64,000 nt of DNA, taken from contig RSEE01000025.1 in assembly GCA_003971905.1 (NCBI GenBank), forward strand, positions 496,001 to 560,000, in the 5' to 3' direction. The position numbers and the translations under genes are program-made. Position 1 is the first letter of the stretch, and the number at the start of each line of letters is the position of its first letter. The notes under the pieces were generated by a model, which worked only from the letters and a program-made list of their open reading frames with translations, had not been told where the DNA came from and ran no database searches. This document shows positions 4,140-61,199 of this stretch, piece by piece. This stretch comes from Moniliella sp. 'wahieum' (taxonomy: Eukaryota).

Positions 4140-4240
4140 CGACGTGTGACATGCGACGTGCCATGGGCATGACATGTGACATGTGACATGGGACATGCGC
4201 CTGGGGGGTGGATGCCACGTGTGATGCATGATGCATGATG
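4140..4240. repeat. 7-bp-period palindromic array (TGA-CATG)n and (TGA-TGCA)n
   Basis: tgacatgtgacatgtgacatg at 4170-4190; tgatgcatgatgcatgatg at 4222-4240. Confidence 0.8.
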
Positions 4241-5176
4241 GGGTGCGGATGTGCACGGCATGGCCAGCCCCATGACGCTGACAGCTGGGTGGCGCCGCGC
4301 GGGGGCCGCAGGGGGCCCCCTTGCATGCTGCCCGTGCGCAGCCAGAATGCCCCCCCCCAGCCACGCGTGACTACTGATACTGATACTGACAAGCGAGAGC
4401 GCGCCGCCAGGTGTCTAACTCATGCACCTTGCAAAACCCCTGGGACGCCCCCGCGCTGGCCCATTCGCTTACGTACAACCAAGCACGCCAGGGCACACCT
4501 CCTCAAACCCAACCTCAGGCCTAAGGGCCTCAAGCCTCAGGTGGCAAGCAAAACCTCTCACATCGTCAAGTCGATCACAGAAGCCCTCACGCCGCGATCA
4601 GCGCCAGCGCCAGCCCCCCGAAAGAGCAGGAGGCCAGCTATGATCGCTAGAGGATTGAGTCGCTAGAGGGATTGAGTACTGGTGAGCGCGGGGCGAAAGA
4701 GGTAGTGAGAGGAGGGATGATGGGAAGGAGCCAGAGAGAAGAAGACGAAGTTATCCCACTGGAGACTGTAGGTCTTTAGAAGGAGGCCTGTCAGTGGTGT
4801 GTTGCCAGCATTCCGCCAGGTGGAGATGGAATGCTGGAGGTACGAGGTTGGAAGACGAGGAGGCATTAGTGGAGACGAGATTATCACGAGAAGGAAACAG
4901 GTCGACAGACAGGTCACTAACAGTTGGATGTTCGCTTGAATTATCAGTGGCTATGCATATTACGGAAAATGCCGGTTAATCCCTGTCCTTTATCACTTCA
5001 AGGTCGTGAGCGAGGCTTCACGCGCTTCGCGCTTCGAAAGGCTGCTGTGAATAATATGGATTGATCCACAAGGAGTTGATCCTGGTGCAGTCGACAGGGA
5101 TACGGAAGCTCATGGAGCACATGCTTTGGGAGAAGCGGGGTAGTGATCGATCAAAGAGCCAACTGGGGTAGGCAAG

Positions 5177-5289
5177 ATAGGATGGATCGGATAGGATCGG
5201 ATAGGATAGGATAGGATAGGATAGGATAGGATAGGATAGGATAGGATAGGATATAGGATAGGTAGGATAGGATAGGAGGATAGGATAGG
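5177..5289. repeat. (GATAG)n pentanucleotide microsatellite
   Basis: About 20 perfect and imperfect GGATA units just 3' of the kinase stop. Confidence 0.95.
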
Positions 5290-5335
5290 TTTGATTCAAG
5301 CAGGGATAGAAACACGCCCCGACGACGGGGCAAGG

Positions 5336-13842: not shown

Positions 13843-13876
13843 TGACTAGTGAGAGTGAGTACTGAGTACTGACGCG
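13843..13876. repeat. 7-bp-period palindromic array (TGA-CTAG, TGA-GTAC x2, TGA-CGCG)
   Basis: tgactagtga and tgagtactgagtactgacgcg. Confidence 0.75.
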
Positions 13877-14769: not shown

Positions 14770-16622
14770 ATGTATGCGGAAATGGGCGACTTCAGCCACG
14801 TCGCCATGCTCGACTTTACCAACGCGTTCAACACTGTGCGCCGTCGCACACTCGCCAAGGCGCTCCATGCTACGCCCCCCACCTCCTCACCTTGGGCCGG
14901 TGGATCTATGGTTCCCCCACCCAGCTTTGGGTTGCGTCGGGCGGAAATGAGACCAGCGTCCTGTCGGCAGAGGGCGTGCGGCAGGGCGACCCCCTCGCCC
15001 CTTTTTCTTCTCCATCGCAGTGCGGCCCACGCTAGAGAAGTTGAGCATTGCTCTGCCGCCGGGGCACCTGGTGATGGCATACCTGGACGACATTACCATT
15101 TTCGGTCCAGAGCCAGGCATTACCGGCCAAGCTGCGGAGATTTGGAAGACGACGCGTCAGGCCTCAAGCTCAACCTGCGCAAGTGCGTCGAGCGGGACCG
15201 GGACCAGATCCGGGAGGATGGTCTGCAGGTTCTGGGCACTTGTGTGGGAGGGGTAGACTGTTGTCGATCGTGGCTCCGGGCCCAACTGGCCAGTCTGAGG
15301 GAGAACATGCCTAAGTTTGATGGCATCACCCGCCAGGGACGCCTCTTACTATGGCGGCTCAGCACTCAGACCAAGCTGCGCCACCTGCTCCGCACCATGC
15401 AGATGGAAGGAGAGCTAGACGAAGTGCTGGCCGAGATCGATGCCTTCATCTGTACGGAGTTCAGACGGATCCGGGGCGACGAGGATCCCCAAGGTGCCAA
15501 GGACGACCACTTCGACATGCTCATGAGCCTGCCTCTCCGGCTAGGAGGATGCGGCAGCCGCTTTACTCGTATATCGCGCCCCACGCCCGTGCCGCGGCCA
15601 ACGAGGTCAACGACTATCTTATTACCACTTATGTTGACCGTTCGGGACCGCAAACGGCAGAGGCCAACGCATTTACGAAGCAACGCCAGCGCTGCCGCGA
15701 GATGTGGGAGAAAAGTCGACAGGAGCTGCCAGAAGCTGGACGCTGCCGATGGTCGTCACGTGGTTGAGCACAGCAACCCGCTGAGCCACAACTGGCTCTC
15801 CGCCATTCCGTCCGTCCCATACCTCAGGCTCTCCGACCAGCAGGTCCAGGTTGGTCTCCAGCTCCGCACGCTGTGCCGCACCACGCGCAGCATGTGCAAG
15901 TGCGGTGTCATGTCCTCGCTGGAGCACATCATGTATTGCACTCGCTCCCAGGCCAAGTTTGGAGCGTTGCATGACGCAGTGCGGGAGCCCATTCTCCAGC
16001 TCCTACGCTCCATTCCCGAACCCATGTCCACAACGAACCAATGGTGGAGGACGAGGATGGCCGGAGACAGAGGACACAGCGCACTGACTACCGCGTGATG
16101 GGACCCGGAGCACTGGGAGGATCAGGAATGGAGGGGACCACACGCTGCGCGACACGGGATCACTGGCAGCGCAGAGCGCGTTCCGGAGGGTGGTGCACGC
16201 GAGCACCGCAACCCCCTTGGAACGCCGGGAGAAGGAGCTGCTTCGGATGCTTGAACAAGCAGAATGCGAGAAGAACGCCAAGTACCAGGGACGCACTCAA
16301 GAGACGTTTTTCCCCCTGGTTTTGACGACGCGAGGATACTACGGCACCAAGACGGCGAGCAAGTTGTTTGCGCATTGGAAGGAGTTGGCTACTAAGTCTC
16401 AGTGGAAATGGTTCCTCGCTCGGATGTCAACCACGTTCCTCCGTGTCCATACGCGCTTCCTAGGGTACGGGACCGGATGGCATGAGCCGGAGGGTCCTGA
16501 TACCTGGCGATCCCCCTGGTTCCTTGACCCTGGTGGCGCCCCTAAGTAACCCCCGCAAGATGAACGGTTAGGTTTAGACGTAGCGTTCCCCTGTCCCAGC
16601 CTTCTTAAGTCTGCCAATTGAA
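14770..16622 (+). mobile_element. 5'-truncated non-LTR retrotransposon, CRE clade (Cnl1/MoTeR-like): reverse transcriptase, CCHC knuckle and restriction-like endonuclease
   Basis: Frameshifted ORF 14770-16549: LDFTNAFN, GVRQGDPLAPFFFS, VMAYLDD, GLKLNLRKC, VLGTCVG, LSLPLRLGGCG-like thumb motif (LMSLPLRLGGCG), WLSAIP, CKCG...HIMYC, LHDAVR (RHD-like), RTDYRV (PD-like), EKNAKY, FFPLVLTTRG. RT motifs upstream of domain 3 are absent. Confidence 0.9.
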
Positions 16623-16732
16623 TGGAAGTTACTAAGGCTTTTTCGAAGCCCTATCTCCTCTTGGTGTGGCAAAAGGCTTGGGCCTCAACATCTCAACCCA
16701 CCGTCAACCGTCGCGCTGTATTACCCTACATC
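16623..16732 (+). repeat. Short dispersed repeat, copy B (right flank of the retroelement)
   Basis: Reverse-complement similarity to about 18-114, including the 26-nt exact TCTCCTCTTGGTGTGGCAAAAGGCTT. Confidence 0.75.
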
Positions 16733-18108
16733 TCCAGAGCTTTTCTCCGTCGAAATGCTTGGGTTCCTCAGGTCTACAAACGGACAAGGAAGGCGGCATG
16801 ACATTACCTTAATTGTGCTGCTTATCTGGCTCATACGATGCCACTCTGTCCCGATGATCGATGACCCACTGTTGCTAGTATATATATGTCCGGCACATCG
16901 AGAGCCACACACGCAAAACAGGTTTTCGCGCCCCCCTCACACCTACTCCGGAGGCGGCGGGGAGACATCCGGACTTCGGCTGCTTGCTTGTGCTGTGGGC
17001 GCAATCGCGCATGGATACACTGCCTTGGCCTCCTCCAGTGGGAAGAGAGCCACCGCGCATGGCGAAGACCATATACGGGGCTGAAAATTCTCAGCGGAAG
17101 GCCACTTGTGCCTCTCGTCTGTACCTGGTCTCACAATCCCGCTGACCGCGGCTCACCGCCCACTGAGGATCAACGAGATCATCGATGAAATTATCCCGTT
17201 ATCGATTATCAATTGTCGCGCATCTCGATTATCAAAGTTGCGCAAGGGCGCGAAGCGGCGCCCCTGTGACCAGTCGACTGATCCACTCCACAGCAGAAGG
17301 CACCAGGGCAGCAAGTAATTCGTTGCTGGCGCTTGGCTTTCATGATATCAGCGCTGAGACTCAGTGCGCTCAGTCTTGAGCGCTGTGAGCAGGAGCAAGT
17401 AAACTGAAAATGCCCAGACTCAGCCTACTGTCAGCGCTTTTATGTAGGAACTGGGCGCTGTGGATGTTCAGGCGTTCACAGGGTCAGGCCGGTCAGGTGG
17501 AATATGCCGACATCCTGAACGCAGGCTCTGTCCCTCCGCTCTGCCCAGGGTTGGCGAGGGTGCAAAAGGCCCCGACAGTCGCCCAGTCCGCCTTGGCGTG
17601 GTGGCGTCTTGTTCTTGTGTGTATAGTATACAGATACGCGGTTCCGACCCGCGTTCTCGGGGTTAGCGAGACGCTCTGGGACACTGAGGGGCTTAGCCTT
17701 GCTTTCGGATCTTGTTGCTGTTGATGATTGACTTCTGAAACTCTGAAGCTTGACGGGCGCCTGACCGCAGAGAAAAGGAGGAACCACGCCGCCAAAGAGA
17801 AGGGGAGCACAAAGCTCTCCTAATATAGGGAGTCATGCACAGCACTCACACAGTGCAGGCCGATAGGCACCCTAAATCGGCGCCACAGGTACCACCGACC
17901 TCTCTTTCATTGCATGTTTTGGTCACGCGAGAGGCGTCCTGGGCTTTAAATCCTCCCACGTACACGTACCCCTCCTTCCATCGTTTCTGTTGGTGTCTCC
18001 TGGGCCTCTTCCTTCCGCCACCACTTCCTTGTTTTCACCCAAATCCACCCTGCTGCATTTCACCCCAATACACCTGTGCACCGCCAATATCGCTCTTGCG
18101 TGTCACCC

Positions 18109-21206: not shown

Positions 21207-21290
21207 GGACGGCTGGCGCAATGGTAGCGCGTCTGACTACGATTTTCAAAGTGTAATCAGGAGGTTGCAGGTTCGACCCTGCGTCGTTCG
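21207..21290 (+). tRNA. tRNA-Arg(ACG) with a 13-nt intron (about 21243-21255)
   Basis: Acceptor GGACGGC/GTCGTTC, D arm GCGC-AATGGTA-GCGC, anticodon stem TCTGA/TCAGG with CT-ACG-A, T arm GCAGG-TTCGAC-CCTGC (loop one nt short, probably an indel error). Confidence 0.9.
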
Positions 21291-22081
21291 ACCCGACAAG
21301 GGCGTCCTTATTTTTGCCGATGGTGTGTATCCAGGCCCTCAATCTTCCTCTTTTGAAAGGACTTATTCTCATCGAGATCATTACAGCCCACGTACATCGG
21401 AACCAAGGTTAGCCCACGTCCACGACGTCTGGTTCAGCCCAACATGCAACACGGAAAAGTATTATTGAACGTGATTGACCCGCCCACAGTTCGTTAGTGA
21501 TTTTCAAGATCGGTCGTTCCGACCAAGATGATATTGCGCGGTTTGTCGGGCAGGTGAGGCTGTGGCTCACAGGCTTGAGGCCATAGGGCTTTTGGACCTT
21601 TCAGCGTCGTTCGCGTGAGATAGAGGGCTACAGAATATGCATGCAAGGAACTTGCGATACATGAAAGTTGATGGCCGAAAGAAAGGCAGAGAAAAGGACA
21701 AATGGATCTATGTATGTGAAGCACATCAACTAGCACGGGTATGGTGAGGACGAAGGTCGCACCTGTGTGCTACGCGACCGGAGGGAGGACAATGAAAACA
21801 TGCCATGGATGGGGGCGCATATAGGGCAGGATAGAGGACAGGGGTATGTCTCTGCAGCGCAAAGCCATCAGCAGCGCACGACGGAATAAGAGATGGTGCG
21901 TCGGCGGGCAGACGAGGAGGAGACCGACGAAGAGGGGGGAGAAAGGGCGAGAACTTGGATGCAAGAAAAAGCGCAGCGGTACTTATGATCATGATGCATG
22001 ATGCGCGAGGTTGCGCCGGTCATGCATCCAGCAGCCCCATGAGTGCGTTGTGCATTATCCCCGACCTGGAGCCGCTCCAGT

Positions 22082-24788: not shown

Positions 24789-25116
24789 TGAAGCTTCAAG
24801 CTTGAAGCTTGACATGTGACAAGGGGCCTAGGCCCAAGGCCTAAGGGACCTAAGGCCTAGGACTACTTCGGTTGGCCAGGCCACTCACTGCCAGGTCTCA
24901 TAAACTAAAGCCTCATATCCTCAGAGAGCTGAACCTCAGCGCTGAGCCTCTGGTGTAATCGTGTGATCTGCTCGATGATCACCCATGCGACCTGTGGTGA
25001 GGTTACCGGTTACCGGTTACCGGGTACTAGTTACTAGTTACTGGTTACCGGCGCGATTCCCGATTACCGGTTACTCCGGCTACTAGTTACTAGTTACCTA
25101 GTTACCGGTTACCGGT
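24789..25116. repeat. Cluster of 7-bp-period palindromic arrays (AGCT, CATG, GGCC, CCGG and CTAG cores)
   Basis: 24789-24819 tga-agct-tca-agct-tga-agct-tga-catg-tga; 25003-25051 tta-ccgg-tta-ccgg-tta-ccgg-gta-ctag-tta-ctag-tta-ctgg-tta-ccgg; similar at 25080-25116. Confidence 0.9.
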
Positions 25117-25622
25117 CGCATGCGGTCGCATTCGCAATGTCAAGGTCACACGCACAGACTGGGTTGGATTCATGAATCCTGGGGTAGGAGTCTGGGGAGA
25201 ATGAAGTTATTAATCTGTTTGCAAGTGGTGAAACGTTCAACACTGGGCGTGACGCGTGACGCGTGAACGTCGCCCAGCGAGCGCTCAGCGCTCAACATCC
25301 TCAACGTGCCGGATTTGGGACGGAAGGAGGGTTCTTACTTATACTCCCGCATTATACTCCCGCAAAGCCAAACGGGGGCCACAACACTGGGGATCATCGA
25401 TCAACGTTAAACGTTAGCCTCGCTGTCCCCCCCATCTTTGTAGCTACCGGGGCGATGCGACCTTGCACAATTGCCGTCCAGTCTTGAAGACGAGAACTAC
25501 TTGTTAGAGCCGGGCCATAAGCTCTCACATGGGATGGGGGTGGGAGCAAGACACACTCTTGGATTTCCTCGACTGTTCATAACATATTGAGCTTTCTTTT
25601 GGCACGGACAAGGCCGTTAACC

Positions 25623-27960
25623 TTAACGCCGGTGCCCCCCCCCCTCACTGGCTCTTTCGTCTAGCTCCACTGCGGTCGAAGAGGGGGCTGGCCAGGGGGT
25701 GGGCCTGGGGGGGTCCAGGCGGCGGTCCAGGCGGAGGCACTGGTACCCCATGGGAGGACGTTGTGAGTAAGTTCCCGGGCCCCTACCCGGCGGTGGGGGG
25801 GGGGGGGGTAGTGATGGGGGAGGTGCACTGCGAGCATAGGGGTTGGGGCTCGGAGCTGCCGGACCCGAGAGTACCGGCCAAGGGGGTACGGAGGAACATG
25901 GGTCCGCGTGCGCCCCCTCTCCCACCGTATCCGCCCCATAGGGGGTGCGGCCGCAGCCGAAGGGGGGTATCCCCTGTGGCCAAGTGAACCGAACTGCGAA
26001 GGCCAGCGTAGGCGGGGGTTCGACCGCCATAGGCTGGGGTCCGTCCTGCTCCCACGGCGGGGGTGCGCCCATCTGGGTAGGTGAGGCCGACGCCATGTAA
26101 AGCGACTTGAAGGCGTTGCAAAGGGAGGGCACGTCGGGACTTTGGGAGGAGCGCACGACAAAAGCGTTGGGAAGCATCTTGACTAGCCACGACGATACTT
26201 CTTTCTCAGCGCGCTCCTTGAAGAACAATTTAACGTAGCCAGGGTGCTTGCGATCAATCGCACATCCATACTGCTACTTGTGAGGGTTGGCTTGGCAGTA
26301 GTTGAAAGGTACTTGTTCAGCTTATCATCCTCGCCTTTGAACTTGTCATGGTGCACCAGTTCCTGTACTTCGCGGAACATAGGATCAATGTGCCCCACAA
26401 TCAGCTCGTCCAACTCCGAGTGCACCTCTTCGCCTACCACGAGAGGCGCCCCCGCACGTACTCATTCTCCTTGTCCAGCTCCTTAACGTCAATGTGCTGG
26501 TACACTGCCAGGTACAACCGCCATGTCACAGCCAAGTGGTCGGTTCCACATGAACTGGGACGGATGATGACTGTGCCATCCGCCTCGTTGGCCAGCATCT
26601 CTTCTGCCTTGCCCGCTTTGACATGGTGGAACCACCAACTCGGCATCAATCGTCGTCCTCCGCGTTTCGCCCCTAAACATTATGAACACACGTCCCCCCT
26701 CAACTATAGCCTCGCCTGGATTCAGCTTGGGAACGCTACCGCTAGCAAGGGAGCAGAGGGGCGACGACTCTTTGGTACGAAGCTCGCGCTTCGGGCATAC
26801 GTCCGGTCCCCTTTCCCGACGAGCCGAGAGGGCCGACTCCCTCTCGGTCCCCGCCCGGCAAGGTTTTCTTCGCTCGGGAGGCCACGCCGTTACACACCGG
26901 CTCACTTTTGGCTCCCTCTTCCAATTGGTTTCTTCGTCCAGCGCAACCCCCAATAGTACAGACGCAATGTCTTGCGGAAGGGCGAGCTGGGTAGTGCGTT
27001 CGGGATAATCAAGCTTACGAATTCCCTCGTCCCGGTCCGTGAGCATCTTGGCCTCTATCTGAGCGGGTTCAAAAACCTATACATGAAAAAAAGCCAGTGG
27101 GCTGCACTTTGGCAATGGAAGCGAAGAGCAAAGTACACACATCCTTGAAGGAGACTCTCGGTAGGTCCTCCTTCAACAACTCGTCATCCTCGGGCTCCGG
27201 AGCCCAGTCGTAATCGTCTCCGCGACCAAATGTTCAGTCTACGCTGCCGTCCCTTCAGCTCTTGATGGCGCGTTTCCCATTCATCCTTGTCTAGCCCTTC
27301 CAAAATCTTCGTCATCATCGATGAAATCGTCCATATATCTGTCATCTTCGTCGACATATGCAACGGGACGAGTGGTGCTATCACGGCGGGAAAAAGTGTT
27401 GAGACCTGCATTGATCGCATCTGCAATGCTCAGATCTTCTTCGTCATCGTCATCGTCATCGTCAAACATGCGAGCCAAGTCAGGGGCGGGACGAGGGCTC
27501 TCTCGTGAGCCACGGCGGAAGCGCTTGAGTTTGTGCTGGTAATAAGGGTTAGCAAAGCGGACCAGGTCCACACGAGAGTGTTTTTTTCAAAAACTTGGCG
27601 TGGATGGCCTCGTGGTCTAAGTCCTCCGCGTCCAGAGATTCATCTTCCTCCTCGCGACCCGTCTTGCGCTTGCGTTCACGGTGACGGTGACGGTGACGAC
27701 GCTCTTCGTGTTCCTCATCCTCATCTTCATCCACAATAAATCCTTCTGCGACCTCACGGGCGGCATATCTTCGTCATCTTCTTCCTCTCGGACGAATCAT
27801 TCGCCTCGGATGAGTCATCCACCTCGGGTGAGTCATCCCCCTCACCCTCAGTAGTGGTGGGGTGGTTGTGGTTAACTTTACCTTCTCCCTCGCTGTCTGA
27901 GAGGAAGGCAGATTTTTGACGCAAATTTTTGGGAGATTTAGCACGCTCCTCGTCCGACAT
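25623..27960 (-). CDS. SPT6: Spt6-like protein: acidic N-terminus plus tandem SH2, central core missing
   Basis: Acidic N-terminus (EEEDESLDAEDLD, KLKRFRR, MDDFIDDDED), FGRGDDYDWA, FEPAQIEAKMLTDRDEGIRKLDYPER, LDEETNW. Within ~300 nt the SH2 motifs follow: IIRPSSCGTDHLAVTW, VYQHIDVKELDKENE, ELDELIVGHI. Pro-rich tail. Confidence 0.8.
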
Positions 27961-28354: not shown

Positions 28355-28612
28355 AGCTTGAAGTTTGAAGCTTGAAGCTTTTGTAGTTTGAAAAGTATAA
28401 TAAGCGTGGATATACTTAAGACCCCACCCGCCGAAGTCAGTATCTAGGGAGGGGATACGATGGCTCCGTCCCCGGTGGGAAGAGGCGTAGGACTGGCGTA
28501 GCAGTGGCGTAGCAAGTGTGACAAGTGATATTGACGAGTGACTAGCTATGTGACGCGTGACGAGTATAGGATGTATGAGATCGATGATCGATGATCGATG
28601 ATCGATGATCTG
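28355..28612. repeat. 7-bp-period palindromic arrays (TGA-AGCT, TGA-CGCG, (TCGA-TGA)4)
   Basis: agcttgaagtttgaagcttgaagct at 28355-28379; tcgatgatcgatgatcgatgatcgatgatc at 28581-28610. Confidence 0.85.
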
Positions 28613-30454
28613 AGATGCGGAGCCCCGCAATTCAACGGCATCCAATGTCCAACTCACATGTCCACTCCCGCCGGCAGCGGTTTCTCATGGTGTGGCAAAA
28701 GCCAGGTCACCGGTCATGCATCATGGAAGTCTCCTTGTCGGAGCACTGCGTTTCAGTTTGGGCAGAGGCTGAGTGCTGGCTAAGCGCCTGGGCCTTTAAA
28801 AGACTTTACTATAGCTTTACTGGCTTGCACCGGCGAGGTTGTGGGACGTGCAGAAGGGACAAAAAAAGGAGAGCAACGTGTTATGTCAGCGCCATCAAGC
28901 ATGTAGCTGATCACGCATCATCACGCTGTTCTTCTCCGACTTCCCCTATGTTCTGCTCCTGACGGGCTCCTCTCCTGGAATAGTACAACCATATCCTCCT
29001 TTCTTATATTGTGCGTAGGGCGTGTCGTGCGGAGAAGAGCTGGTCGTACGTGCCGCACCGACGATGGAGGGCAAAACGTCTGTGATGCAAATGCACCGGG
29101 CAAAAGACCATAATATCCCCAGAGCTTTTTGGCACAAGGCTCATGTATATGCCATGACATTTAATATTTTACAGGAAACAGACTGTTCAGCCTGAAGGTT
29201 CACGACACGTTCACGTTCAGCCTGGCAGCAAGTCACTCACAAAGGCTGAAAAAGTGCGCCACACAGTGTGCAGTGGCTGTCGTGGAGAGAGGCTGCCAGT
29301 GAGGGCGATGAAAGTGTACACGTTGTACACCCCGATGTAATCACAGCTGAAAACCCAGTCAGCCATCATACATCAGTGCGGCTACGAGTGAGCTGGGATG
29401 ATCGATGAGGACGTCGAGGACGCGAGATGTGCCCCCGCAACCCACGCGATGAGAAAGATACACACGGCAAGAACATAATATGCGGGGTAACCGGTAGAAG
29501 ACCTCCGGCTGAGGACTCGATGAATGCACTGCCCCCAGGGGAGGAGGCTGCGCAAGACGGCTGCGTCTGCAATCTCAGGGCCTCCCGCCCGGCGCGCGTC
29601 ACGCGCTCTCGCACAATGAATGTGCTTTGGAAGCTGGGGAGGCAGCATGGGGGGTGCTCGGGAGCTGTGGTGAGCGGGTGAGGCTGAGCGCCATGCCGTG
29701 CGGAAGCTTCGCTGCGGCTTGGGCCTCGACTGTGGATGGATTCGATCGTGGCAGCGTAGAGGGTGATGCCGTGATGCGTTGACGTCAGCGTCAGCCGTGC
29801 TTACCGGCTGCCCGCTTACCTCTTCCGTCTTAGATCTTAGATCTTACCAGCCGCAGCGCTGGGCAGTGGGCTGCTGCGGGCGTCGGCAGGCGCACATGGA
29901 CACTGGCGAGGTGCTGCGGGGCGTCGCATTCCGCATGCCGCATGCCGGCTGCCAGCACTTAGACGGAGGCTGCCAGTGACTAGTTACTGAGCCAGTAGAG
30001 TGGCCGGGTGCGCGGGGCCGGTGCGCCTGAGACTCAGCGGTCCCGGGGCCTGAGCCGCTGAGCCGCCGTCTGCCGCTGCTCCGCTCCGTCCGCCTCGGCG
30101 CAGATGCAGACGCCCGAGCGCATAGACGGCCGCCGCGGGGGCAGTGTCCGCGTTGGCCGCACTCTCAGATCTCGCCTCTCACCGATCATCTCGGTCTCAC
30201 GCTTGGAGCGAGTGCGACGGAGGGTGGCACGAGCGCTGGGCGGCAGGCTCACCAGGCTGGTGTGGCAGCACTGCTGACTTCCTCTCGCCTCTCGCTGTCT
30301 CCGCCACCATCCACCCGGCCGCCCCCGCACCAGGCCACACCCTGCCGCCTGACGCCTGACGCTCACAACACATCCGCTCCCGACGGTATATACCGCCCCT
30401 CCCCTCTTCATCTATGCGTCTCCTAACCCTCTCCTACCCCTCCCCGTGCCCGCG

Positions 30455-32077: not shown

Positions 32078-35000
32078 AAAACCCACCTCATTCCCCTTTG
32101 CCTTTTGCCTTTTGGGCCGGCGGTTCCGACTCTATCAAACATCCCCGGCCTACTCTGGGGCTTTTACCCCCCTTCGTGCATGACCTTTACCGCCTTGCTC
32201 ATCCCCTTGCCCCTCCCCTCCTACACACACACATGCCTCATCCCACTCTCCTTTTCCCCCAATCAACTGCCTTTGTGATGAATCTGTGCCAATTTTGTGG
32301 GCTTGTTGCCCGCATGCATACCTGTCCCTATCGTTTGTGTGAGATTTGTGTGGTGTCCTATCTCCAGACCCTTCCTTTGTTGTCTTGAGGATTGAATTTC
32401 GCTTGTAGGATTATCGATTACTCTTCTCTCCTCTGCCACAGGCAGGTGTGGCCTTTGGCCTGCTTCTTGGTGCTTGCGCGGCTACTGGTGGCACTTAACG
32501 TTCACGGACGTGGGTATAGTTATTGGCTTGCCTTGATTTTCCTTTCTTATCCGGTCATCCCTCGCGTGCTTGTGTCTTGTGCCTTAGGATCAGTTGGTGG
32601 AAAAGCATGTGGGGGCGCTGCTGCTAACTGAATACTCGTCCAAGTGATCCGCTGGTTCCCTCGACTGCTTTTTTTTCTGTGGTGTGCTTATTCGTCGTGT
32701 CCCGAGCTGTTTGCACCCCTGATACATACAACGACTCCAATTGGGCCTTCAAAATTCACTTTTACCAGTAATAGGGGGAATCGTGGTGGAAGACCCTCGA
32801 CGTGGACTTGATCCCTTCCACATTCATCCTGCCGAAGGGGCGCTGGGGGGGAGGAGTCCAATGTTTGTGGGCAATAGCGCCGCCAACTTCCTGCAGGGGG
32901 CATAACAGTTGCCTTGATTGTATCATTCTTATCATTCTGGGCCTGCCAGCCTGCGCGCAGGATCGGCAGATCAGTATCTACTGCCGTGAGAGCGTTTTGT
33001 GTGGGGGTAGGATAGGAGTGTGTTTTGCGTACTATACTAATATACCACAGATTCATTTTGTGGACCCGGAAACCGATGACCAAAAGTCAGACATATATAG
33101 GCGCCACAGATGTCGTATGATGGCCGAGAGACTGTACACACCACTCCGAGATAGAGGCAGTGTGTTGTGTGTTGGTTCAATGTTTGATGGACCGATGCAT
33201 AACATTGTTGATTCTGGGCATGAAAAGACCTGCCATGCCGCAGCTGTTCAATACCTTGAACACACGGAAGGGACGATGATGAGGAAGGAGGGATATGGGA
33301 GGGTGGGACAGCCAATAATAATGAAGGATTCGCAGTTCACGTGAGTGTGTCCATATGTTTTATCCACGCATTATATGTACTCGCGCTACATTCACACGGG
33401 AGCGCCCAACACAATGGTGTTTTGACCTGATGGCAACGCCATTTCTACCTTTCCCCGGAGCTGGTCATCGCTCCAGAGTGGGCCCGGGCCGTTGGGTGCC
33501 CGGCGACGGACATGTACACGACAGGGGCATCATGAACGAAGTGTGCCCCTGAGTCTCCGGCCTGTAATTCTTCCGCAGCCGGAGACAAGACGAGCGCTCC
33601 GTGCGCAGTGGCTGGCCAAGCGAGTGTACAATAACACGGTCTTGCACAAAGTGTACCCACCCTTGTTGGTCTAGGTGGCGCAGTACCTGTGGTGATCAAG
33701 CAGGTAAGCAGGCGCCCGAGCCCCTGATGTCTTTTGGTGCTCGATATCATGAGAGCACGAGGCGCATCAACTGGTCTTGTCAGTAGCGCCACAAGGCCGA
33801 TGCTGCAGGCAACATTGTGAAAGGGGAGGAGAAAGGGCGTTCACCCTACCGATATATGCCCCCCCCCCGCGGGATTCTAATGCCGGAGCAATGGCGCCAC
33901 AACGAGCAGAACTTCTTGTTTGTCCGCCGACAGATCGAAACAGCAACCCCGAATATGGGTCTCTTCCAATGATGATGAGCCACTCACAGTCCTCAGGTAC
34001 AAGCTTTGGAAGTAACTCAAGACTAACGCCCATGGAAGGAAGAGCTCTCAGGTATTGCACCAGATGGGGAAGAAATGGACACCGCTTACAAGGTGCGGTT
34101 GTCTCCCAACAACGCCGTGGCGCGGGTCGATTACATTCATCCCTGACTGTACCAGCCGCGCAGCGTTCCCAACACACATCTGCACCCCGTCTATATGCAT
34201 AGGAAGAGAGAAAGGCAATACAGAAAAAGTCATGGTGGAGAGAATCGTGATGCTGCGATATAAATCTGAATGCCATGGTTCAATGTTGGGCCGAAGTTGC
34301 TGCTATCATCTATCGTGTGCCCCTTTTGCCTTTTCAAAAACGCTGGGCAGTATGATCCTCTGACCTCCCTATTACACATGCGAGAAGGGCTCTCGAGTGT
34401 TCGATAGCACGTGCATTGCCCGACATAGAAGCTGATCCGTCGGGTGTGATTATACCGTGAGAGGCCACATATATGACACTGTATGGTATCTACGTATGGG
34501 TGCGCCACAAGAAGCCTCTGGTTTTCGGCGGCACAAAAGCATATATCACAACTACAGAGGGTGCCACATGGGATGAGATCGATGAGAGACGGTCGTGCGT
34601 GGGTGGGTGGAGCCTCGGCAAACCTCTGTGAGGGTTCTGGGAGCGTGTGGCATACACGCGTTGACAAAAAAGCGCCGATCCCCGTCTCAACCCGCCGTCA
34701 TCAGGGGTGACTTCGTACTAAGAGGACAAAAGTAGGGTGCAGGAGACATACTATATCCCCCGTGTGCTCAGCGCTCATCGAGCCCTTCCCTCTCTTTTCT
34801 TTCCCAAAGGACGAGGGGGCTGTAGCCTGCTGTAGCCGGAGGCAGGGCGTTATACCACGTCAGGATATCATGGCGGCATGGTTGTGAATGGGACACGCTG
34901 CATAGTGCATAACGGGTGTATAGAGATTAGTACTATAGGTGTGGAGCCGACAGGATCTCCATAGCTTCGATCACCATCGAGATCAAGCTCATGATTGTAG

Positions 35001-36549
35001 CACACACCTGGGCGGTACAAGTGTGGTGGAGAAGCGTGGCGAGTCCATCCGGTCTAGATTCAAAGGGCCACACATTAATAATGACCCTAGTGACCACGCC
35101 CTTGAAGCAGCGTAAATATAGACCCATGGAAGTGTATGATGCGTGGCAACGCTGGTGTGACGAATGTGATGTAGGGACCTATTATAAACTCTATATTCTA
35201 CCGACGAATCCATCACCATGGCTGGGTGGCCACGGTGGAACTTATTCGCGCCCTCTAGTGCCCTCCTTGAGGCCTCTGGTTCTGGGCGCTCGCTGTGGCC
35301 TGGGCCTGACCCTCAGGCTTGGCCTCAAGCCTCAAGCTTTCAAGCCATATAGCGCTAAGCATCTCCTGTGACCACATGATGCATGAGACGCACGAAGAAA
35401 CTGTATAGAGATCAGTCCAATTAAACGTATGTGTAGTGACTATAAGTGAGTACCGATTGCGGGAGCATGGGGTATGTTGGGCATGCTGTATGCTGGGGTC
35501 GGTAGAACCCCCAGATCCTGCGTCGCTCTATCACATTCATGTACTTGACCCAGATGCGCATCGTGGTGTATAAAAAGGGTTTTCTCGTTTTCACCTTAAA
35601 ATCATAGGGACAAAGCAAGAAGCGCAATGGGATCGTTTTCATCAACGTGGTGGGTGGCGCCAATGGTCGGATGGGAGACGTGACAACCCCTTCGGGGACG
35701 TTGCTCCCAGAGCTCATCATATTGTCTGCCCCGCCAAGAAAGGCCAGCGGCACATGTCTTTTTTGATGAGGCGACCATAAAACGGCAGCACCACGGTAAA
35801 CGCCATATCACTTTTCGGGTGTATCATGCATCATCCACATCATGCACCATGCGACATGCGGCGTACATGCCGTGCTGGGACATGGTGTGATTTTATGCAT
35901 GTGATTCACGTATGTGCCACACTTGTGGACCATGCTCGGAGTGGGATGGCAGGGATGGTCGTCAATGAATGAATTAATGATGCGAAGGTCGTTGCGCCTG
36001 ATCAACCAGTGTGGTTCACAAGATGCTGAAGACGTATACACGGAATGGGTACTCTTCAGTGTACTCAGTTGAGTATTGAGACTCAGTACTCACAGTACCA
36101 GTATTCAATTGTGTCGAAGTAATGCAGTTAGGATAGTGTAAAAATGTGGCACGAGACTACAAGCTCGAGAGCTGCGGGGAGACCGCATTACCGATAGAGC
36201 GCAGATAAAAACGTTAAACGTGTTGGATCGGCGAAATGGATAAAAGCTATTGGTGGAAGGCTTGTGCATCTGATGCAATAAGCTGTTCCCCGGAGGGCCC
36301 GAGAAGCAGCTTGTGGTGATGCGGCTTTAGGATGTGGTGGCGTCGAAGAACACACGTATGGAGTAACTAGTAAAGCTTAAAGACTCAGTGCGGTTTTAAC
36401 ATCCAAAAGCATCCCACTGAAGAAGCTGAAGAACGTGCGTGGCGACCGCGCCACAACGCCACGATACCATACCTTACCATATGCACCATGCCTCTAGGCG
36501 GTGGTACCTGGTGTACATTCAACTCGCAACGGATATCAATATCACCACA

Positions 36550-37070
36550 AACGATAATCGATAACCGATCGATATCGATAAACGATAATGAAGCTAAGGT
36601 TGAATCGAAGGGGGCCGAAGGTGTGATGATTGTGCAATGATACGGTGGAAATAATCCTTGGGACTCCGATCATCGATCATGGACCATCCATTATCGATCA
36701 TCGATTATCGATTATCGGTAATTTGTTGTCTCAGATCGCACCAAGCATCTCGTGGATTGACCGGACGGCCGGACTGTCCGACGCAGCTGCAGAGCACACC
36801 ATAACCCTAGTATTGAAATGAGGCATCGAAGCTTAATGATTAATGACCGCTGAGCTTCAGGGAGGCCATTGGAGTCGTCGGGGAGCAAGAGGGACCAGGG
36901 AGCGGTGACGCGTGATGCGTGATGTATGATGTATGATGCATGATGAATGATGATCAGAGTGTGGCTTGTACAAGACTGCGTACGGCCGTTCGCGGGCACG
37001 GGGGGTACAGCAGGAGAGTTGCTATCGGTGGATACTACTCGATTATGGCGATGATCGATGATCGATTATC
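36550..37070. repeat. 7-bp-period palindromic arrays (TCGA, CGCG/TGCA cores)
   Basis: 36666-36721 has eight in-register TNA-TCGA-type units; 36906-36950 tga-cgcg-tga-tgcg-tga-tgta-tga-tgta-tga-tgca-tga-tgaa-tga. Confidence 0.85.
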
Positions 37071-38019
37071 CGTCCGTATTACGAAGCGATCGCTCAAAAT
37101 GGGAATAGCCGACGTTGCTTGCTTAGTCGCTGTATCGCATGTCATGCATCACCTCAAGAGCCAGTTGGTGGGCTGGAACGTGGCGAGATCTGAGATCCGA
37201 GAGGTCGATGAGGCCTTGTCACATGTCATGGGAAGGGTGAATACGATGGAGGGTTTGGAGGACCAAGGATCGGGTGCGGTCTCTTCTCAATATCTCAATG
37301 GTATTCCATACAGGAGGACCCCAACCGGAGGGCGAAGCTCCTGGGGTAGCGTTGTGGTACACATGTGCGCATAATGTAAGTGGTGTGGCATGTGTGGCCC
37401 AGCGTGGATTCTCTTCTCAGCTTCTCTTCAGCGTTCATGAACGATAACGCCGAAGCTTGAAGACACAACGCCTCTTATGTTTACACACTCTCCACACGCA
37501 CCGATAAAGAGAGGTTTGGAGCAAGTGGTGGGTGCAACTTTCTATGTATCATGAAGTGCATGTGAGGAGAGGCAATCGCGGAAATAAAGGACACCATCAA
37601 GAAGAAGCGTTACGCGCGTTGCGAGGTATGAAAAAGTGCTTCCACATTTTGATGCTGTGGGCCGCATGGGGCAGTGCTTTCGCAGCGTTTCTATTATCGT
37701 CGGTATAGTAAATCAAAGAGCGCTGCACATAGCCCCGCTTCCCATCGTTTGCATCGAGCAAAGAGACATCCAATCTGACGAGCGCAACGACCGCACCCAG
37801 AGGCAGGCCATTTCTTGTAGCCTATCCTCAGCCATGCACCACACACTCTTCTGTGTACATATACATGCTGAACGTAAACAATCTGTGGGCAGTGTAGTGA
37901 AGCCAGTAGCGAGGAAAACAAAAGTGGACGAAATACAACTCTGATCAGTATTCTGCAGTGCATCCAGCATATTCAGCAGTCAATATTCAGAGGCTCAGCG
38001 CGCTACGGTACTGCGGGTG

Positions 38020-38325
38020 AGCTCAGTACCACAGTACAAGTACTCAAGCTTCATGAAGTTTCAAGTACATCTGTACTCAGTGACTCATACCACACTTCTT
38101 ATACTCGCGCCAGCCTCAATGTCTTAGATCCTAACGTCGCACGTCACACATCACGCGTCACGCGTCACGCGCGTCACCCTGCAACGATATTCATATTCAG
38201 ATCCGTACGTTCAGTTCAGCACCAACGCGTTCCAGCGCCCAAGCGCCCAAGCTCTCAGATATCACATCTCAAGCTCAGGCTTCAAGCGCTCAGCTCAACC
38301 GCTCAACGTACTGAATGTACTGACA
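38020..38325. repeat. Degenerate 7-bp-period palindromic arrays (GTAC, AGCT, CGCG, GCGC)
   Basis: tcacgcgtcacgcgtcacgcg at 38151-38171; agtactcaagcttca and caagcgctcag nearby. Confidence 0.7.
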
Positions 38326-39570
38326 ACCCTGCCATCACCAACATGCCCTGCGTCACATCCTGGTGGCTGACACTGGTCCTGTGCTGGGGTTGTAGCGAAT
38401 GCGGGGTATGCGTAAGACGCAGCAGGAGAAAAGTGGTGGCACTCTGAGTGGCGGTTTCAATATCTCAGACTCAGCCACCCGGATACGGTGGCCGGGGCGG
38501 AAGTGGCGGACGGAGAGTCGGTGACGCTGGTGGGATCTGCTCGAGTAGTCTCTGGACGAGACTCAGTGGGCAGTCGCTGCACACCAGTCACATGTCACAT
38601 GCACAAGCTAGCTACTGCCTTGAGGGACACCACTTCCAGACCTCAGATCCTCAGACCTCAGGCTGCAGGCTGCGCAGGCCGCAGACCTTGGGGGAAGGAT
38701 GCACAGCTTGTCGGTCGGTGCTCGGCGCTCGGCGCTCGGCGCTTAGAAGCAGCCAAGTTTCATCAGCTGGACGGGTGGCGCCCCGGAGGGCTCGATCTCC
38801 CCGCCACTGAGTACTGACTCCAGTTTGACCAACGCCGCCCCATCACGCATCACACAAACGCGCCATGTGTCCCCCCCGACCCCGGCCCCATCCATCTCAT
38901 CGGCCATCCGGCGCCCTGGGTTACATTTCGCTCTCCTCGCCCTCTTCCGAAAGACCTTTCGGAGCGACGCCCGACAAGCGGCTACCGGCTACCCGGCTCA
39001 CCGTGATTGGTAGCTGGTGGCTGTAGTCACAATGACGAGTGGCGAGTGGCTAGGCACGCCTGGGCACGCCCCAGCTGCCCAGCCCTGCTGGCTCGGCGGA
39101 GAGTAGGAGACGATCGATGATCGATGATCCTCTGAACGTTAACGTTAAACGTGTTAAACGCGGCGTTGAAGGCTGATCACCGATTGCGAGATCACCTCGA
39201 TCACTGCAGTGCGCAAGCCCACCGGCCACGGGGCACCCTAGCTGGCGCCCTACGCACCCTGCCCAAGCGCTGATGCGCCTGTAGTCAGTAGTGGCAGCAT
39301 ACTGAGTTCACTCCACTCCCTGTCTTTGCGATGCACACGCGGTGGCAAGCCCCTTGCCCAACTGCCGCCAAGGGCTGGGTGTGCGATGGATGCCCCCCCC
39401 GTCCCGCGTATAAGCCCGCCTGCCCCGCCTGCGCTTCGTCTTCCCGCCGCACACACCCGAATGCTCTTCCCCTCTCCTTCCAGCTCCCACGCGCCCCCCC
39501 ACCCCCCATGGTCAGGATGCGCTGACGAGCCCCCTTCCCGCCGCCTCCCCAAGCACCGCAGCAATACCTC

Positions 39571-46620: not shown

Positions 46621-46761
46621 GGTATATATCGGATGAGAGGGGCGAAAGGGGGGGAGAAGTGGTAAAGAAAGCGAGTTTCAAGGGGGTTACATTATACAGA
46701 AGGAGAAAGGAGAAGTTCACGCGTTCACATTCGCTCTCTCCACTGTTAGAATGGTGGGGGG

Positions 46762-46890
46762 TGACCGGTGACCGGTGACATGCGACCGGTGACATGCGAC
46801 GTGTGGCATGTGTCATGTGACATGTGACACGCGACACACCACTGGGCGTGGCTTGGTCGATCATCGATCAGAACGATCATCGATCATCTC
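46762..46890. repeat. 7-bp-period palindromic array in the H3/H4 divergent promoter
   Basis: Ten in-register units at 46762-46834 (CCGG/CATG cores); TCGA-TCA units at 46857-46887. Confidence 0.85.
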
Positions 46891-47285: not shown

Positions 47286-47618
<333 letters not shown>

Positions 47619-57551: not shown

Positions 57552-58633
57552 ATGCTCTTCCGCATCCGCACTGCCTTGGCCGTGCTTGCCGCTGCCGGTA
57601 GCGTCTTTGCGTCCGCACTGGAGGTGACGGAAAGCTTGCGGTCACGACCATTGATGGTGCCACGCGCCTGACACAACCGTTCAAGTCGGGTGTGGATGTG
57701 ACCACGTCGTTGCCCCAGCCGCTTGCGCTGGAAGCCGACGAAGTCCTGCGCATCTCATTCCGCACGTTTGATCCTTATTTGGAGAGGACGAACCCCAAAA
57801 GGCACCCGAACAGCTCTTTGCCATTCTTGCAGACCCGGCCCACCCAGAGCATCAAGTTTCCACCCCAGTGCCCATTAAGAAAGGCAGTGGGAACAGGGCG
57901 AGCTTCACTGTTGTACGTGTTTTCTCTCTTGGATGCGGCCACGAATCTGACAACCTTGCTCTGTAGCGATTGGACCGCATGCCTCCCTCTCTCTTGAGCG
58001 GAAGCGGGCGCCTCTCTCTCCATCTCCTCCTGGGTTCTGCGGGGGAGTCAGCCCCCTTGGCGTATAGCCTTGGCGAAATTTCTGTGCCTAACCACATCCT
58101 TGTTGAGGAAAGTGCTGCTCTGACCCCGCGAGAGAAACGGGCTCAAGAAGATGGCTTTTACGGATGGCCGGCCCAACATCATACGTTTGCCATCCGGCGA
58201 GCGAGACTATGCCTCCTGCGATTATCAGCATTGCGTGTGCAGCACTGACTCTGGGCCTGCCTTGGGCTCTGCTTGTTGGTCTGGTTCGTACTCTTCTTGC
58301 TCTTATTGACATGACGCTCACATGTTTTATTTTTCACAGTGTCGTCCCTTGGCCTGCAAGTCACCAAGGGCGGCGAGAAGCCCAAGGCGATTTTTCTGGG
58401 TGATCGGGTACCTTGAACTGATTGCGCTCCGCTACTGGATCGGAGGCCCTTCTTTCACTCTGTTCAAGATGCTGCCTTGGCTTGCGGGCGGTGGCGTGGC
58501 TGCCCTGCTCACTGGACGGTACGCCTTGGGCCAGTTGGCGGCAGAGCGATTGGGTGTTCCAACCGTATCCCCGCCAGAACTTGCATCCGAAACCAAGGAG
58601 GAAGTTGCACCTGTTGACCAGAAGGCTGCGTAA
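57552..58633 (+). CDS. SWP1: Oligosaccharyltransferase delta subunit (Swp1/ribophorin II C-terminal)
   Basis: Signal peptide MLFRIRTALAVLAAAGSVFA, QHHTF..P...PPAIISI, LPWALLVGL, YWIG...LFKMLP, GRYAL. Introns; divergent from BET2. Confidence 0.75.
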
Positions 58634-59263
58634 TTCCTGATCGACTGTTAGTCAACCCTGGGCAATGCTATGTTGGTTGGCTTCCCCCAAGCGTACCATG
58701 CCACATGTATAGACGTGTCTGATCTGACTGTGTTGCTCGAGGTGGTGGGCTAAGTCCCCTGTCCTTACGGCGTCTGCGTGATGCATGTTTTTAGACTAAG
58801 CTTTCGCTGCTCTCTTTACTGGCCCACACAGAGTGGAAGACCTGCAGCAGTGTGTTGATCCGGGCAAGAGCCTGGGGCCGGAACGCCTGGCGAGCCCTCC
58901 TGGGTAGGAACCTCGTTTTTGCTGGACCATCTGAATTCCTCCAGCAGGGTGTTGTTTGTGTTCGTACTGAGTACCAGGCGGCTGTGCTGCTGACCAGATG
59001 TAGTGGCCGGTGATCTCAGGCCTCAGGCTGAGGCACGGGGCCTGAGGCATGGTCTGAGTACACCGAGTACTGAATAGAGCTCCCTGTTAGGGTTACCGCT
59101 GCCCTGATTGGGAGCGGGGGGTGCCTCTAATCTTTGGCATCCGACCGCCATTCGCCACTCGCACACGACTTGTGACCTGTTCGGCTTGGACCTCGAACCC
59201 TCTGGTCTGTTCTTGCTTTTCCTCGTATCGCGTTTCCACCACCACTTGCTTGTTTCATCCACC

Positions 59264-59973
59264 ATGTCGTCCTGGGGATCTTGGTTTGGAGGTCGGAGTC
59301 GGACCGCGCCGCGGGATGCGATTGTGGGGTTGCGGGAGAACCTGCTGATGCTCGACAAGAAGGAGCAGCACCTCCACAAGAAGATTGAGGAGCAGCAAAC
59401 CAAGGCACGTGGCCTGGTGTCTACGAATAAAAAGGCAGCGGCGCAGGCGCTTCGTCAAAAGAAACAATACGAGTCGGAGTTGGACCGGATTGCCGGCACG
59501 CGCATGACGCTCGAGGCCCAGGTCAACGCGATCGAGTCGGCCAACATGAACTTGGAGACGATGCAGGCCATGAAGCGTGGCTCCGAGGCGCTCAAGCAAA
59601 TCCATGGCTCGCTCAACATTGACAAGGTCGACGCTACGATGGACTCGATTCGGGAGCAGATGGACTTGACCAACGAGATCTCCGATGCCATCTCCAATCC
59701 GGTCGGGATGGGGCAGGACATTGACGAGGTATGTGGCCCTGCTCAGTGGCGCAAGGGAGGTACTGACTCACAGACAAGGATGAGCTCAAGGATGAGCTGG
59801 ATGAACTGGAACAGGAGGGCCTGGACGAGCGCTTGGTGGGGGCGGAACGGGTGCCCCACACAGCCCTCCCTTCGGTCCCGACCCCCATCACCTCCACTCC
59901 CGGCAAGCAAAAAGCTCAGGAGGAAGACGAGGATGCCGAGCTACGTGCCCTGCAGGCCGAGTTGGCCATGTAA
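59264..59973 (+). CDS. SNF7: ESCRT-III subunit Snf7/Vps32
   Basis: MSSWGSWFGG...RDAIVGLRENLLMLDKKE...LEAQVNAIESANMNLETMQAM...EISDAISNP...DIDE|DELKDELDELEQE...ELRALQAELAM*. Confidence 0.95.
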
Positions 59974-60452
59974 GGCTCGCTGCGGACCCGGGTCGGATCG
60001 GCGTATGGTAAACACGTTCGGGTGTACCTTGTTGTGCGCCCTTGTGTAGAGCGTGCCAGGCGTCTATCTTCCTTTGCCCATGCTTCCGCCCTCCGGACTC
60101 AGGCCTCATGCATCATGTCCTGCCGGCTGCGGTGTTGACATGTGGCATCTTAGTCTTGGCAGAGACCAGGAGGGGCTCCTCTCTTTGCGTCCCCTCACCA
60201 TCTACACTCTGTTCCTATTGCGGCGCTTGGGCGGTGGTGTCCTTCCTGTCCCGCCTGGGATGGGCTACAGTGACAGCACAGGCCCGTTCCGCGCTACATG
60301 TTATCGTATAAGAGTCTGAATGATCTAAACAAGTACTGGGCAGGTGGGATGTGTGTCCAGGCGAGTTGCACTTCAACTCGGATAGGTTTTTAGACGATTA
60401 ACTTGGTGCAAATCTGGGCCAACCACCGGTGCAGACAGAAAAAGGCAAAAAA

Positions 60453-60535
60453 GGGGTCCGCCCGGGATCGAACCGAGGACCACCTCTACGAGTTGAAAAC
60501 CCTAAAGAGGCATGATACCACTACACCACGAACCC
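60453..60535 (-). tRNA. tRNA-Pro(AGG) with an ~11-nt intron
   Basis: Acceptor GGGTTCG/CGGACCC, D arm GTG-TAGTGGTAT-CAT, anticodon stem CCTCT/AGAGG with TT-AGG-G, T arm CTCGG-TTCGATC-CCGGG, followed by an oligo-T terminator. Confidence 0.92.
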
Positions 60536-61199
60536 TTGATGGAAACTGGGTTGCTGAAAGTAGAGTCAGGCGTAACGCATAAAGAGCTATCGCTGTGTTG
60601 CCCACTGTAGGCCGTGGTGGGGCCTCAAACTGCAATGGAGTTGCGCTGAAGAATAGATATGTGATAGGAATGACTGCTGCAGAAGCATTGTACCCAGAGC
60701 CGATAGAACGGATGCAGTATGCATCACGCATGCATCACGCACCAATCCAGGGCCATCGTTATCCGAAGATGTATGCTTAGGCTGGCCTCGTGCGTGGGCG
60801 CTTGCCCATCCCAAACTGGGGGCGCTGCCACACAGTGCCTCAGTGCCTCCGTGCCTCGGGTGTGGTCACATGCACATCACATGTCATACTAGTCACCGGG
60901 TCACTGGGAGGGTCCCCCGGCACGGATGCCGGGCATGCAGTGGATGCAGCTGCATGCCAGGCAGACCAGCCGCAGCCCCAGGCATCCCGCCCCCGCATGC
61001 GTCCCCATGCAGGCCCCGCGCTGCAGACAACCCTAGCGCCCTGCATCACCGCAGCGCCGGGCAGCACAGCGCAGCACTGCGCAGCACCCCTCCGCGTGCA
61101 GCCTCGCCGCCCCGGTTGAGTGCTGTGTGGTGCTGGGCACGCCTGGGCCCTGCTGCGCCCCCCCCGGCTGCCCCCCCGCCCAGCAGCGGAGCATCTGAG

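Follow-up and report, generated by a model that had tools for sequence, protein, structure and literature searches.

Flank-templated palindromic 7-nucleotide units across a fungal genome: probable end-joining scars of transposon excision

How does intergenic DNA come to hold short arrays in which one triplet, TNA, alternates in register with four-base palindromes of many kinds? The question is raised by a 64,000-nucleotide stretch of contig RSEE01000025.1 (C25:496001-560000, hereafter the window), in which a first-pass annotation had noticed such TNA-palindrome arrays and proposed either a common generator or a structural promoter code. We find that the palindromic core of a unit is copied from the dinucleotide beside a TNA triplet. 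Our preferred reading, to which we assign a probability of about 0.7, is that the units are end-joining scars, most likely left by insertion and then excision of a cut-and-paste DNA transposon.

Occurrence of the units in the window and the assembly

We counted 92 T.A-core-T.A units in the window, against 9.0±3.0 (maximum 18) in 60 block dinucleotide shuffles, while non-palindromic cores were at chance (116 versus 128±10). Consecutive unit pairs with the same core numbered 23, compared with 0.07 in the shuffles. Among 16 flank and spacer geometries, T-N-A alone was strongly enriched (92 versus 8.4); the runner-up was TA-core-TA (11 versus 4.0). The 7-bp period held for exact tandems (48 versus 5.3), but period 6 was also raised (63 versus 18), and period 8 gave 7 versus 1.1. 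Searching the whole assembly with TNACATGTNACATGTNA returned 777 matches versus 0 for the reversed control. The pattern is real and genome-wide.

Several details of the first description required correction. An exact T.A-core-T.A lies within ~45 nt of 18 of the 19 core positions given there, but the GGCC at 24850 is degenerate (TAA-GGCC-TAG). Cores made only of A and T had been thought absent, but the window contains TTAA (36837, 41094) and ATAT (37980). All 16 palindromic cores occur; the AT-only ones among 507 units with the same N on both sides (same-N units), taken from a 534-kb sample of non-redundant genome sequence also used for the joint counts below, are TTAA 17, ATAT 15, AATT 3 and TATA 1. 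The spacer N does vary between arrays, but within a unit it is copied directly in 251/324 cases and complementary (inverted) in 34/324. The dyad recorded every 3.5 bp is thus a by-product, and repeated fold-back through the N dyad is disfavoured.

The avoidance of coding DNA was confirmed. The window holds 75 same-N units, from 297 to 60886, and one of them falls in a 13-kb coding proxy that contains 480 of 2590 TNA sites (P 4e-6); this sole unit belongs constitutively to a retrotransposon. Coding DNA presumably lacks units because a gain of 7 nt shifts the frame. The units are strongly clustered (0-37 per 10-kb locus), and extrapolation gives about 66,000 units genome-wide, or about 40,000 if the sample is 1.7-fold rich, as a CATG check suggests.

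The eukaryotic assembly (69.5 Mb in 223 contigs) contains haplotype pairs with 2.85% substitutions across 309 kb aligned, as well as distant homeologues of ~68-82% identity, which makes the genome polyploid or hybrid and of unusual size for a Malassezia relative. The close haplotype pairs are C30/C13, C21/C18, C11/C28, C21/C36, C30/C49 and C17/C62. The contig of the window has no close partner in the assembly, so the haplotype comparisons were made on other contigs. There, 121 of 265 units had an identical counterpart in the partner haplotype, which was assembled separately, and 144 differed (106 by a gap, 38 by substitution). Between haplotypes the units are hypervariable. No copy-specific unit was present in 20 young retrotransposon copies (35 kb), which, together with the units shared by both haplotypes, speaks against a base-calling artefact. 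Errors of 1-2 nt are abundant in the assembly, and the contigs of one small-share sequencing run match gene parts only, none spanning arrays.

Open-access literature (supplements apart) yielded no description of such genome-wide units. A metagenome query with the TCGA core only, which is not a survey, returned at least 120 stretches with (TSA-TCGA)3-TSA; none of the 80 read showed the multi-core pattern, and units with other cores numbered no more than 7, in surroundings that were AT-rich or dominated by a single core.

Flank copying and the spectrum of joints

A site xyTNAzw that gains 7 nt becomes xyTNA-y'x'xy-TNAzw or, in mirror form, xyTNA-zww'z'-TNAzw. The core is copied from the flanking dinucleotide on one side, two bases exactly, and is not a code. 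Among 245 single units, the core matched its flanks (left,right) as (2,0) in 33, (0,2) in 35, (1,2) in 22, (2,1) in 10 and (2,2) in 6. The cores are varied because each is templated by the dinucleotide beside TNA, the 16 dinucleotides giving 16 cores. The rule is obeyed by 27 of the 48 exact period-7 tandems of the window. The common generator that had been suspected is supported. We rejected perfect 7-bp duplication of an existing 7-bp palindrome, which predicts two-sided matches, as the (2,2) class is 6/245. The excess of TNA-TNA in the genome sample is weak (383 versus 339), and outside the 7-mer there is no strong base preference apart from a residual in-register TNA.

Haplotype comparison gave 54 clean indels of length 7, compared with 39 of length 6 and 22 of length 8, after three paralogue alignments had been removed. 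The TNA rule explains 28 of the 54. Slippage cannot explain 15 of these 28, which are non-tandem, because they contain new inverted bases; the other 13 are copy-number changes within arrays. Slippage fits this later growth of arrays, not their birth. Of nine 14-nt indels, four were double units fitting the rule.

The direction of change is visible in a solo long terminal repeat (LTR) with 39 copies (mean 91.5% identity). Six units occur in it, one copy each, and five lie on copy-specific insertions of 7, 7, 10, 10 and 11 nt that are missing from 26-36 of 37-38 other copies. The solo-LTR copies show insertion polarity. The +10 insertions (loci L261 and L268) each pair a +7 unit with one more TNA triplet, which may reflect a +3 class that loses both overhangs.

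We then counted joints by the left-end (zw plus its mirror) and right-end (mirror plus xy) bases retained between two same-N TNAs, using informative sites, those whose two flanks predict different cores. The +7 joints were dominated by (4,0) with 167 and (0,4) with 152, versus ~3 expected. The +8 joints numbered 16-23 per class versus 0.3 expected, many with 1-nt microhomology, and the +9 joints were (2,4) 21 and (4,2) 18 versus 0.1 expected. Joints of the +9 class contain two full copies of the 7-mer separated by two inverted bases. A third inverted base was present in 5 and 1 cases, and one +11 joint was found.

The limits of the duplicated target are sharp. For 7-mer repeats with a 2-nt spacer, the spacer was inverted in 37/51 at TNA centres versus 63/411 at the other 15 centres, and 8-mer duplication was not enriched (1/26). 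The second copy restarts 0, 1, 2, 3 or 4 nt before TNA in 319, 39, 39, 1 and 2 cases, and the fold point lies 2 nt past TNA with two inverted bases in 563/797 versus 50 expected. These symmetric 2-nt limits on either side of TNA set the stagger at 7 nt. A lattice of even zero-loop hairpins on the 7-mer fits 152 and 167 joints in the two +7 classes, versus 1-6 per class for odd hairpins; an odd 9-bp lattice fits 4-11 for the inverted classes. The fit was far worse when the even hairpins were placed on duplications of 5 or 9 bp. Cores of AATT and TATA are truly scarce and those of TTAA and ATAT are not, so that AA or TA ends seem disfavoured at the hairpin tip. This bias recalls coding-end effects on RAG.

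The joint in which both flank-predicted palindromes adjoin (+11) was tallied by eye in two genome-wide lists of 390 and 305 matches, in the leading 100 rows of each. It was weakly supported, in 7/29 eligible rows (P 0.002) and in 5/24 after removal of likely haplotype duplicates (P 0.015). Tandem arrays of 11 bp and 22 bp, built of TCA-AGCT and a second tetramer, lie at C13:620125-620252 and C1:1722136-1722164. The C13 array begins with a flank-predicted +11 joint, suggesting that minor scar classes also seed minisatellites.

In-register triples were abundant, both mixed-core (23 versus 0) and same-core (90 versus 0). The mixed-core arrays indicate repeated hits, and the same-core triples fit re-hits or slippage.

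A proposed excision mechanism and its alternatives

We propose the following series of events. A staggered cut of 7 nt would open a 7-bp site, xy-T-N-A-zw, and lead to its duplication; the duplication is written in the sequence geometry, and an element would have lain between the copies. Both flanks would next be sealed into blunt zero-loop hairpins in the fashion of RAG, Transib or Muta1-type enzymes, the observed even palindromes being the predicted trace of these putative covalent intermediates. Each hairpin would be opened 2 nt beyond its tip, in keeping with the observed 2-nt limit, by a postulated enzyme, leaving 4-nt palindromic overhangs (zw-w'z' and y'x'-xy) that start at TNA. A presumed end-joining machinery would mostly retain one overhang and drop the other, for a net gain of 7 with the core set by the left or right flank; more rarely, 1-2 further bases (+8, +9) or both overhangs (+11) would be kept. 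The scar would offer two new in-register TNA targets, and re-hits would build same- or mixed-core arrays whose copy number slippage could then alter. We regard the geometry of the first four steps as very probable and a transposon as the probable agent. Insertion and then excision of an element is the simplest way to obtain a duplication whose two inner ends form hairpins. The earlier suggestion of hairpin-type repair or element footprints is supported, with the amendment that the duplicated target is a TNA-centred 7-mer, not the 3-bp TNA.

Excision footprints that carry P nucleotides have been described before. Flank hairpins are made by hAT, Transib, RAG and Muta1 (PMC5499845, available part), and Artemis cleaves hairpins at positions 1-3 nt 3' of the tip, most often at 2 (PMC3528771, available part). 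The genome contains a DRMBL match, an Artemis/Pso2-type gene. V(D)J coding joints and Transib/RAG of the CMCT clade share with our scars the even palindromes at the joint, the limit of two inverted bases, the trimming and the 1-nt microhomology (PMC3528771, PMC5499845, in the portions available). However, the duplication here is 7 bp and TNA-centred, compared with 2-5 bp reported for CMCT in the accessible text of PMC12730594; no untemplated additions are needed, the +7 outcome dominates, and the sites are heritable and number tens of thousands. The scars appear to work like the excision footprints of a RAG/Transib-type hairpin transposase and are not assignable to a family. The blunt zero-loop geometry of the putative flank hairpins and the even P nucleotides agree with CMCT elements. 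Such hairpins are shown for RAG/Transib and only proposed for EnSpm.

Other systems resemble the scars in part. Footprints of Ac/Ds and other hAT elements combine a target duplication with hairpin-derived inverted bases, and fungal hAT7 also duplicates 7 bp (PMC12730594 and PMC4455052, as far as available). However, the centre of a hAT palindrome is the complement of the base that borders the element (PMC5873905, available part), and odd hairpins fit few +7 joints here. Muta1, a Mutator-like element, makes its flank hairpin with no base lost (43+43 nt), but in yeast it excises precisely in >90% of cases and makes long duplications (PMC5499845, same part), and a search for Mutator-like elements was blank here. 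Kyakuja elements (KDZ) make 7-bp duplications, as the available text of PMC12730594 and PMC4455052 states. Their hosts are basidiomycetes, although they are reported from Agaricomycotina, and they would escape scans for terminal inverted repeats (TIRs) because they lack them (PMC12730594, same portion). We found no report in the open-access literature (supplements apart) of a 7-bp TNA-centred target with even hairpins and self-iterating arrays at genome scale.

An EnSpm/CMCT-like element is the best lead, although we hold this attribution tentatively and at somewhat less than even odds. EnSpm-like loci (PF02992, Tnp2-type) are present on C17 (L091:4100-7240), with a haplotype copy on C62 (L233), and on C34 (L092:3260-6870); they are mutually divergent and have no visible TIRs. 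The C17/C62 copy is a neutrally drifting fossil. The C34 gene is single-copy and, when aligned, retains the first and second acidic positions, and this locus may be more intact. Tnp2-like queries found nothing beyond these and a faint match on C27 that is not an element, and no longer homologues of the C17 open reading frame (ORF) were found. Genome searches were blank for PF05699 (hAT), PF18758 (KDZ), both with a silent control, PF18759 (Plavaka), with a control below cut-off, PF13359 (Harbinger), PF13358 (Tc1) and PF10551 (MULE), the last with controls positive in 3/14 and sensitivity limited by the frameshift-rich assembly. No shared element ends rose above controls in the scanned loci. Two kinds of retroelement were rejected as agents. 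The junctions of 20 copies of the non-LTR retrotransposon with a restriction-like endonuclease had no consistent 7-bp duplication. The LTR integrase (5-bp duplication, 2-nt processing) predicts a CA-end strand bias that was absent (TCA 106 versus TGA 98), and polymorphic solo LTRs carry ordinary 5-bp duplications. A 1.4-kb sequence at L089:4508-5952 has terminal inverted repeats of at least 19 bp and a 5-bp AT-rich duplication, with no clear ORF and no second copy in the examined loci.

Several observations weigh against the excision of a transposon. The duplication reaches and stops at 7 bp, outside the CMCT range cited above, and intact 7-bp duplications without inverted bases number 41 at TNA versus 43-115 at other centres. 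Among the 7-nt haplotype indels, 22/54 obey no rule and another 4 conform around a triplet other than TNA. Only one of the five solo-LTR insertions is a plain +7 at a site otherwise unaltered; of the others, one needs a prior C>T change, two are +10 with an extra TNA, and one is a complex +11. The five TCGA cases of the +11 joint all have N=C, for which fold-back around a 3-nt loop is an alternative, and the flank preferences of the two sides correlate weakly (rho 0.31, P 0.24). TIR elements with a TNA-centred 7-bp duplication were not above control centres in ~0.9-1.0 Mb scanned of ~69 Mb. No TIRs or duplications surround the three transposase loci or the faint fourth match, and no element with CA..TG ends in its TIRs and a duplicated target was found at the examined loci (~1 of 69 Mb). 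At C17/C62 the first catalytic D is H in both haplotypes, and substitutions by codon position are 14/18/16. It is odd that tens of thousands of scars stand beside two detectable Tnp2-like loci.

This disparity of many recent scars and few elements keeps alive a reading that dispenses with the element, in which a host or domesticated nuclease or recombinase cuts nnTNAnn with a 7-nt stagger, fills, seals hairpins and rejoins without a lasting insertion. It predicts the same scar geometry. It is in accord with the failure to find a resident element in the scanned sequence, with events recent enough to be haplotype-polymorphic in a genome where detectable transposases are nearly absent, and with the strong clustering of units. 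However, no eukaryotic enzyme is known that, with no element in between, first fills a 7-nt stagger and afterwards closes the ends as blunt hairpins. The Tnp2-like gene present in two haplotypes is not a domesticated candidate because it evolves neutrally and lacks its first D. We consider it unlikely that a domesticated RAG-like 'scribbler' cuts nnTNAnn in accessible DNA while end-joining writes the palindromic 7-mers. Short-range template switching during replication, with fold-back 2 nt after TNA, 2 nt copied and return 5-7 nt upstream, can likewise yield a local inverted copy and an indel in one event; all +7, +8 and +9 events can be expressed in its four-point scheme, and TNA is a quasi-palindrome. 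Yet the return would have to precede the departure, an order seen in 0/794 human-chimp events, each with at least 14 copied bases, in the accessible part of PMC5453318. It gives no reason for the sharp symmetric 2-nt limits, the zero-loop turn, the fixed sequence-specific geometry or the +11 class, and the direct copying of N opposes it, so that we hold it very improbable.

The remaining explanations fare worse against the flank rule. Selection for a promoter code or a grammar of binding sites, such as bZIP-like TGA/TTA half-sites spaced 7 bp apart, would suit the intergenic location of the units, some of which may resemble known yeast motifs. However, all 16 cores occur and are dictated by the flank, only 121/265 units match exactly across haplotypes whose divergence is 2.85%, and units arise as copy-specific insertions within LTR copies. 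As an origin this code is largely refuted and we give it scarcely any credence; some units may have been co-opted secondarily. PIF/Harbinger footprints, made of a 3-bp TNA duplication plus two leftover bases of each element end, would explain why TNA is duplicated in all classes, and canonical Harbingers do make 3-bp duplications (PMC12730594, available text). They are refuted by cores that follow the local flank and not a fixed element end, and the duplication spans 5-7 bp, which with the blank PF13359 search leaves them a negligible chance; neither a PIF/Harbinger nor a hAT origin, both suggested by the first-pass annotation, fits the geometry. We likewise accord almost no probability to ordinary microsatellite slippage or a noisy-long-read artefact. 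Small indel errors are indeed common and 13 of the 28 rule-fitting indels are plain tandem changes, but the other 15 contain inverted bases beyond slippage, the units common to two haplotypes and the lack of copy-specific ones in young retrotransposons tell against sequencing noise, and one centre (TNA) of 16 is affected.

If excision of a transposon is the correct reading, the genome would hold a genome-scale fossil record of cut-and-paste excision from which the target, stagger, hairpin type and opening position can be read. Its combination of a 7-bp TNA-centred duplication with RAG-type blunt hairpins would be new to the literature examined, as far as the available portions go. It would also supply a concrete origin of microsatellites, from scar to re-hit to slippage, and a route for the continual creation of palindromic motifs in promoters. 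The field of candidate enzymes is reduced by the +9 class and the sharp 2-nt limits. If a domesticated enzyme were instead responsible, a self-seeding process would write 6-bp palindromic motifs into promoters and so diversify them heritably.

Units and other features of the window

The left part of the window begins with a (TGA-CATG)x4 array (4170-4197) and a (TGA-TGCA) array (4222-4240), followed by a TGA-CTAG unit with (TGA-GTAC)x2 (13843-13872). A scar of the +9 class, in which the 7-mer GG-TCA-GG is duplicated with two inverted bases between, lies at 17482-17497, and a TGA-TGCA unit at 21990-22004. An in-register mixed-core array with AGCT, AGCT and CATG occupies 24789-24822. Beyond it are a long mixed TTA array with CCGG and CTAG cores (25001-25116; +8 class joint at 25092), a (TGA-CGCG) array with a TCA-GCGC unit (25247-25294) and a mixed array of TCGA then ACGT (25394-25416). 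A degenerate (TGA-AGCT) array (28358-28392) is followed by a TGA-CGCG unit with a (TGA-TCGA)x4 array (28551-28610), the mixed array TCA-CCGG-TCA-TGCA-TCA (28707-28723) and, upstream of a CoA-transferase gene, a (TTA-GATC) array (29828-29846).

Further right lie a +9 class scar, GA-TGA-GA (34572-34587), the mixed array TAA-CTAG-TAA-AGCT-TAA (36364-36380) and a cluster of TCGA-core units with TAA, TCA and TTA spacers (36555-36717). The AT-only cores include TGA-TTAA-TGA (36833-36846) and TCA-ATAT-TCA (37980-37989). Scars of the +8 class are found at 37285-37299 and at 38293, 38641, 42130, 47001 and 53662. A (TCA-CGCG)x3 array (38151-38171) precedes a stretch at 39112-39159 that joins a TGA-TCGA array, a TGA-ACGT-TAA unit and a +9 class scar (39144; GT-TAA-AC duplicated with GT between). 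Arrays of (TGA-CCGG), (TGA-CATG) and (TCA-TCGA) cluster at 46760-46888. The right end holds a TCA-GGCC-TCA unit upstream of a Snf7-domain gene (59015-59028), the mixed array TCA-GGCC-TCA-TGCA-TCA (60099-60115) and the last unit of the window, TCA-CATG-TCA (60877-60886).

The genes of the window encode malate synthase, cobalamin-independent methionine synthase, a CoA transferase, a Snf7 protein and kinases. The top named matches of a methionine synthase fragment are Malassezia spp. (75-76%), followed by other Ustilaginomycotina; the host is a Ustilaginomycotina fungus. At 14774-16635 (+) lies a 5'-truncated non-LTR retrotransposon, which we take to be CRE-clade-like, with a reverse transcriptase (YLDDI) and a C-terminal zinc-knuckle/restriction-like endonuclease region; its ORF has no Pfam match. 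The element has at least 40 copies of 89-99% identity, with a variable 3' tail ending near CTAG and AT-rich 5' junctions, and the copy in the window is nested in a dispersed LTR-like repeat. A dispersed repeat of ~205 bp at ~26690-26895, which has matches of 78-82% on 14 or more further contigs, interrupts a long gene that, judged by its translation, is presumably SPT6-like. ARAGORN predicted a tRNA-Arg(ACG) with an apparent intron at 21207-21290 (+) and a tRNA-Lys(TTT) at 60453-60535 (-).

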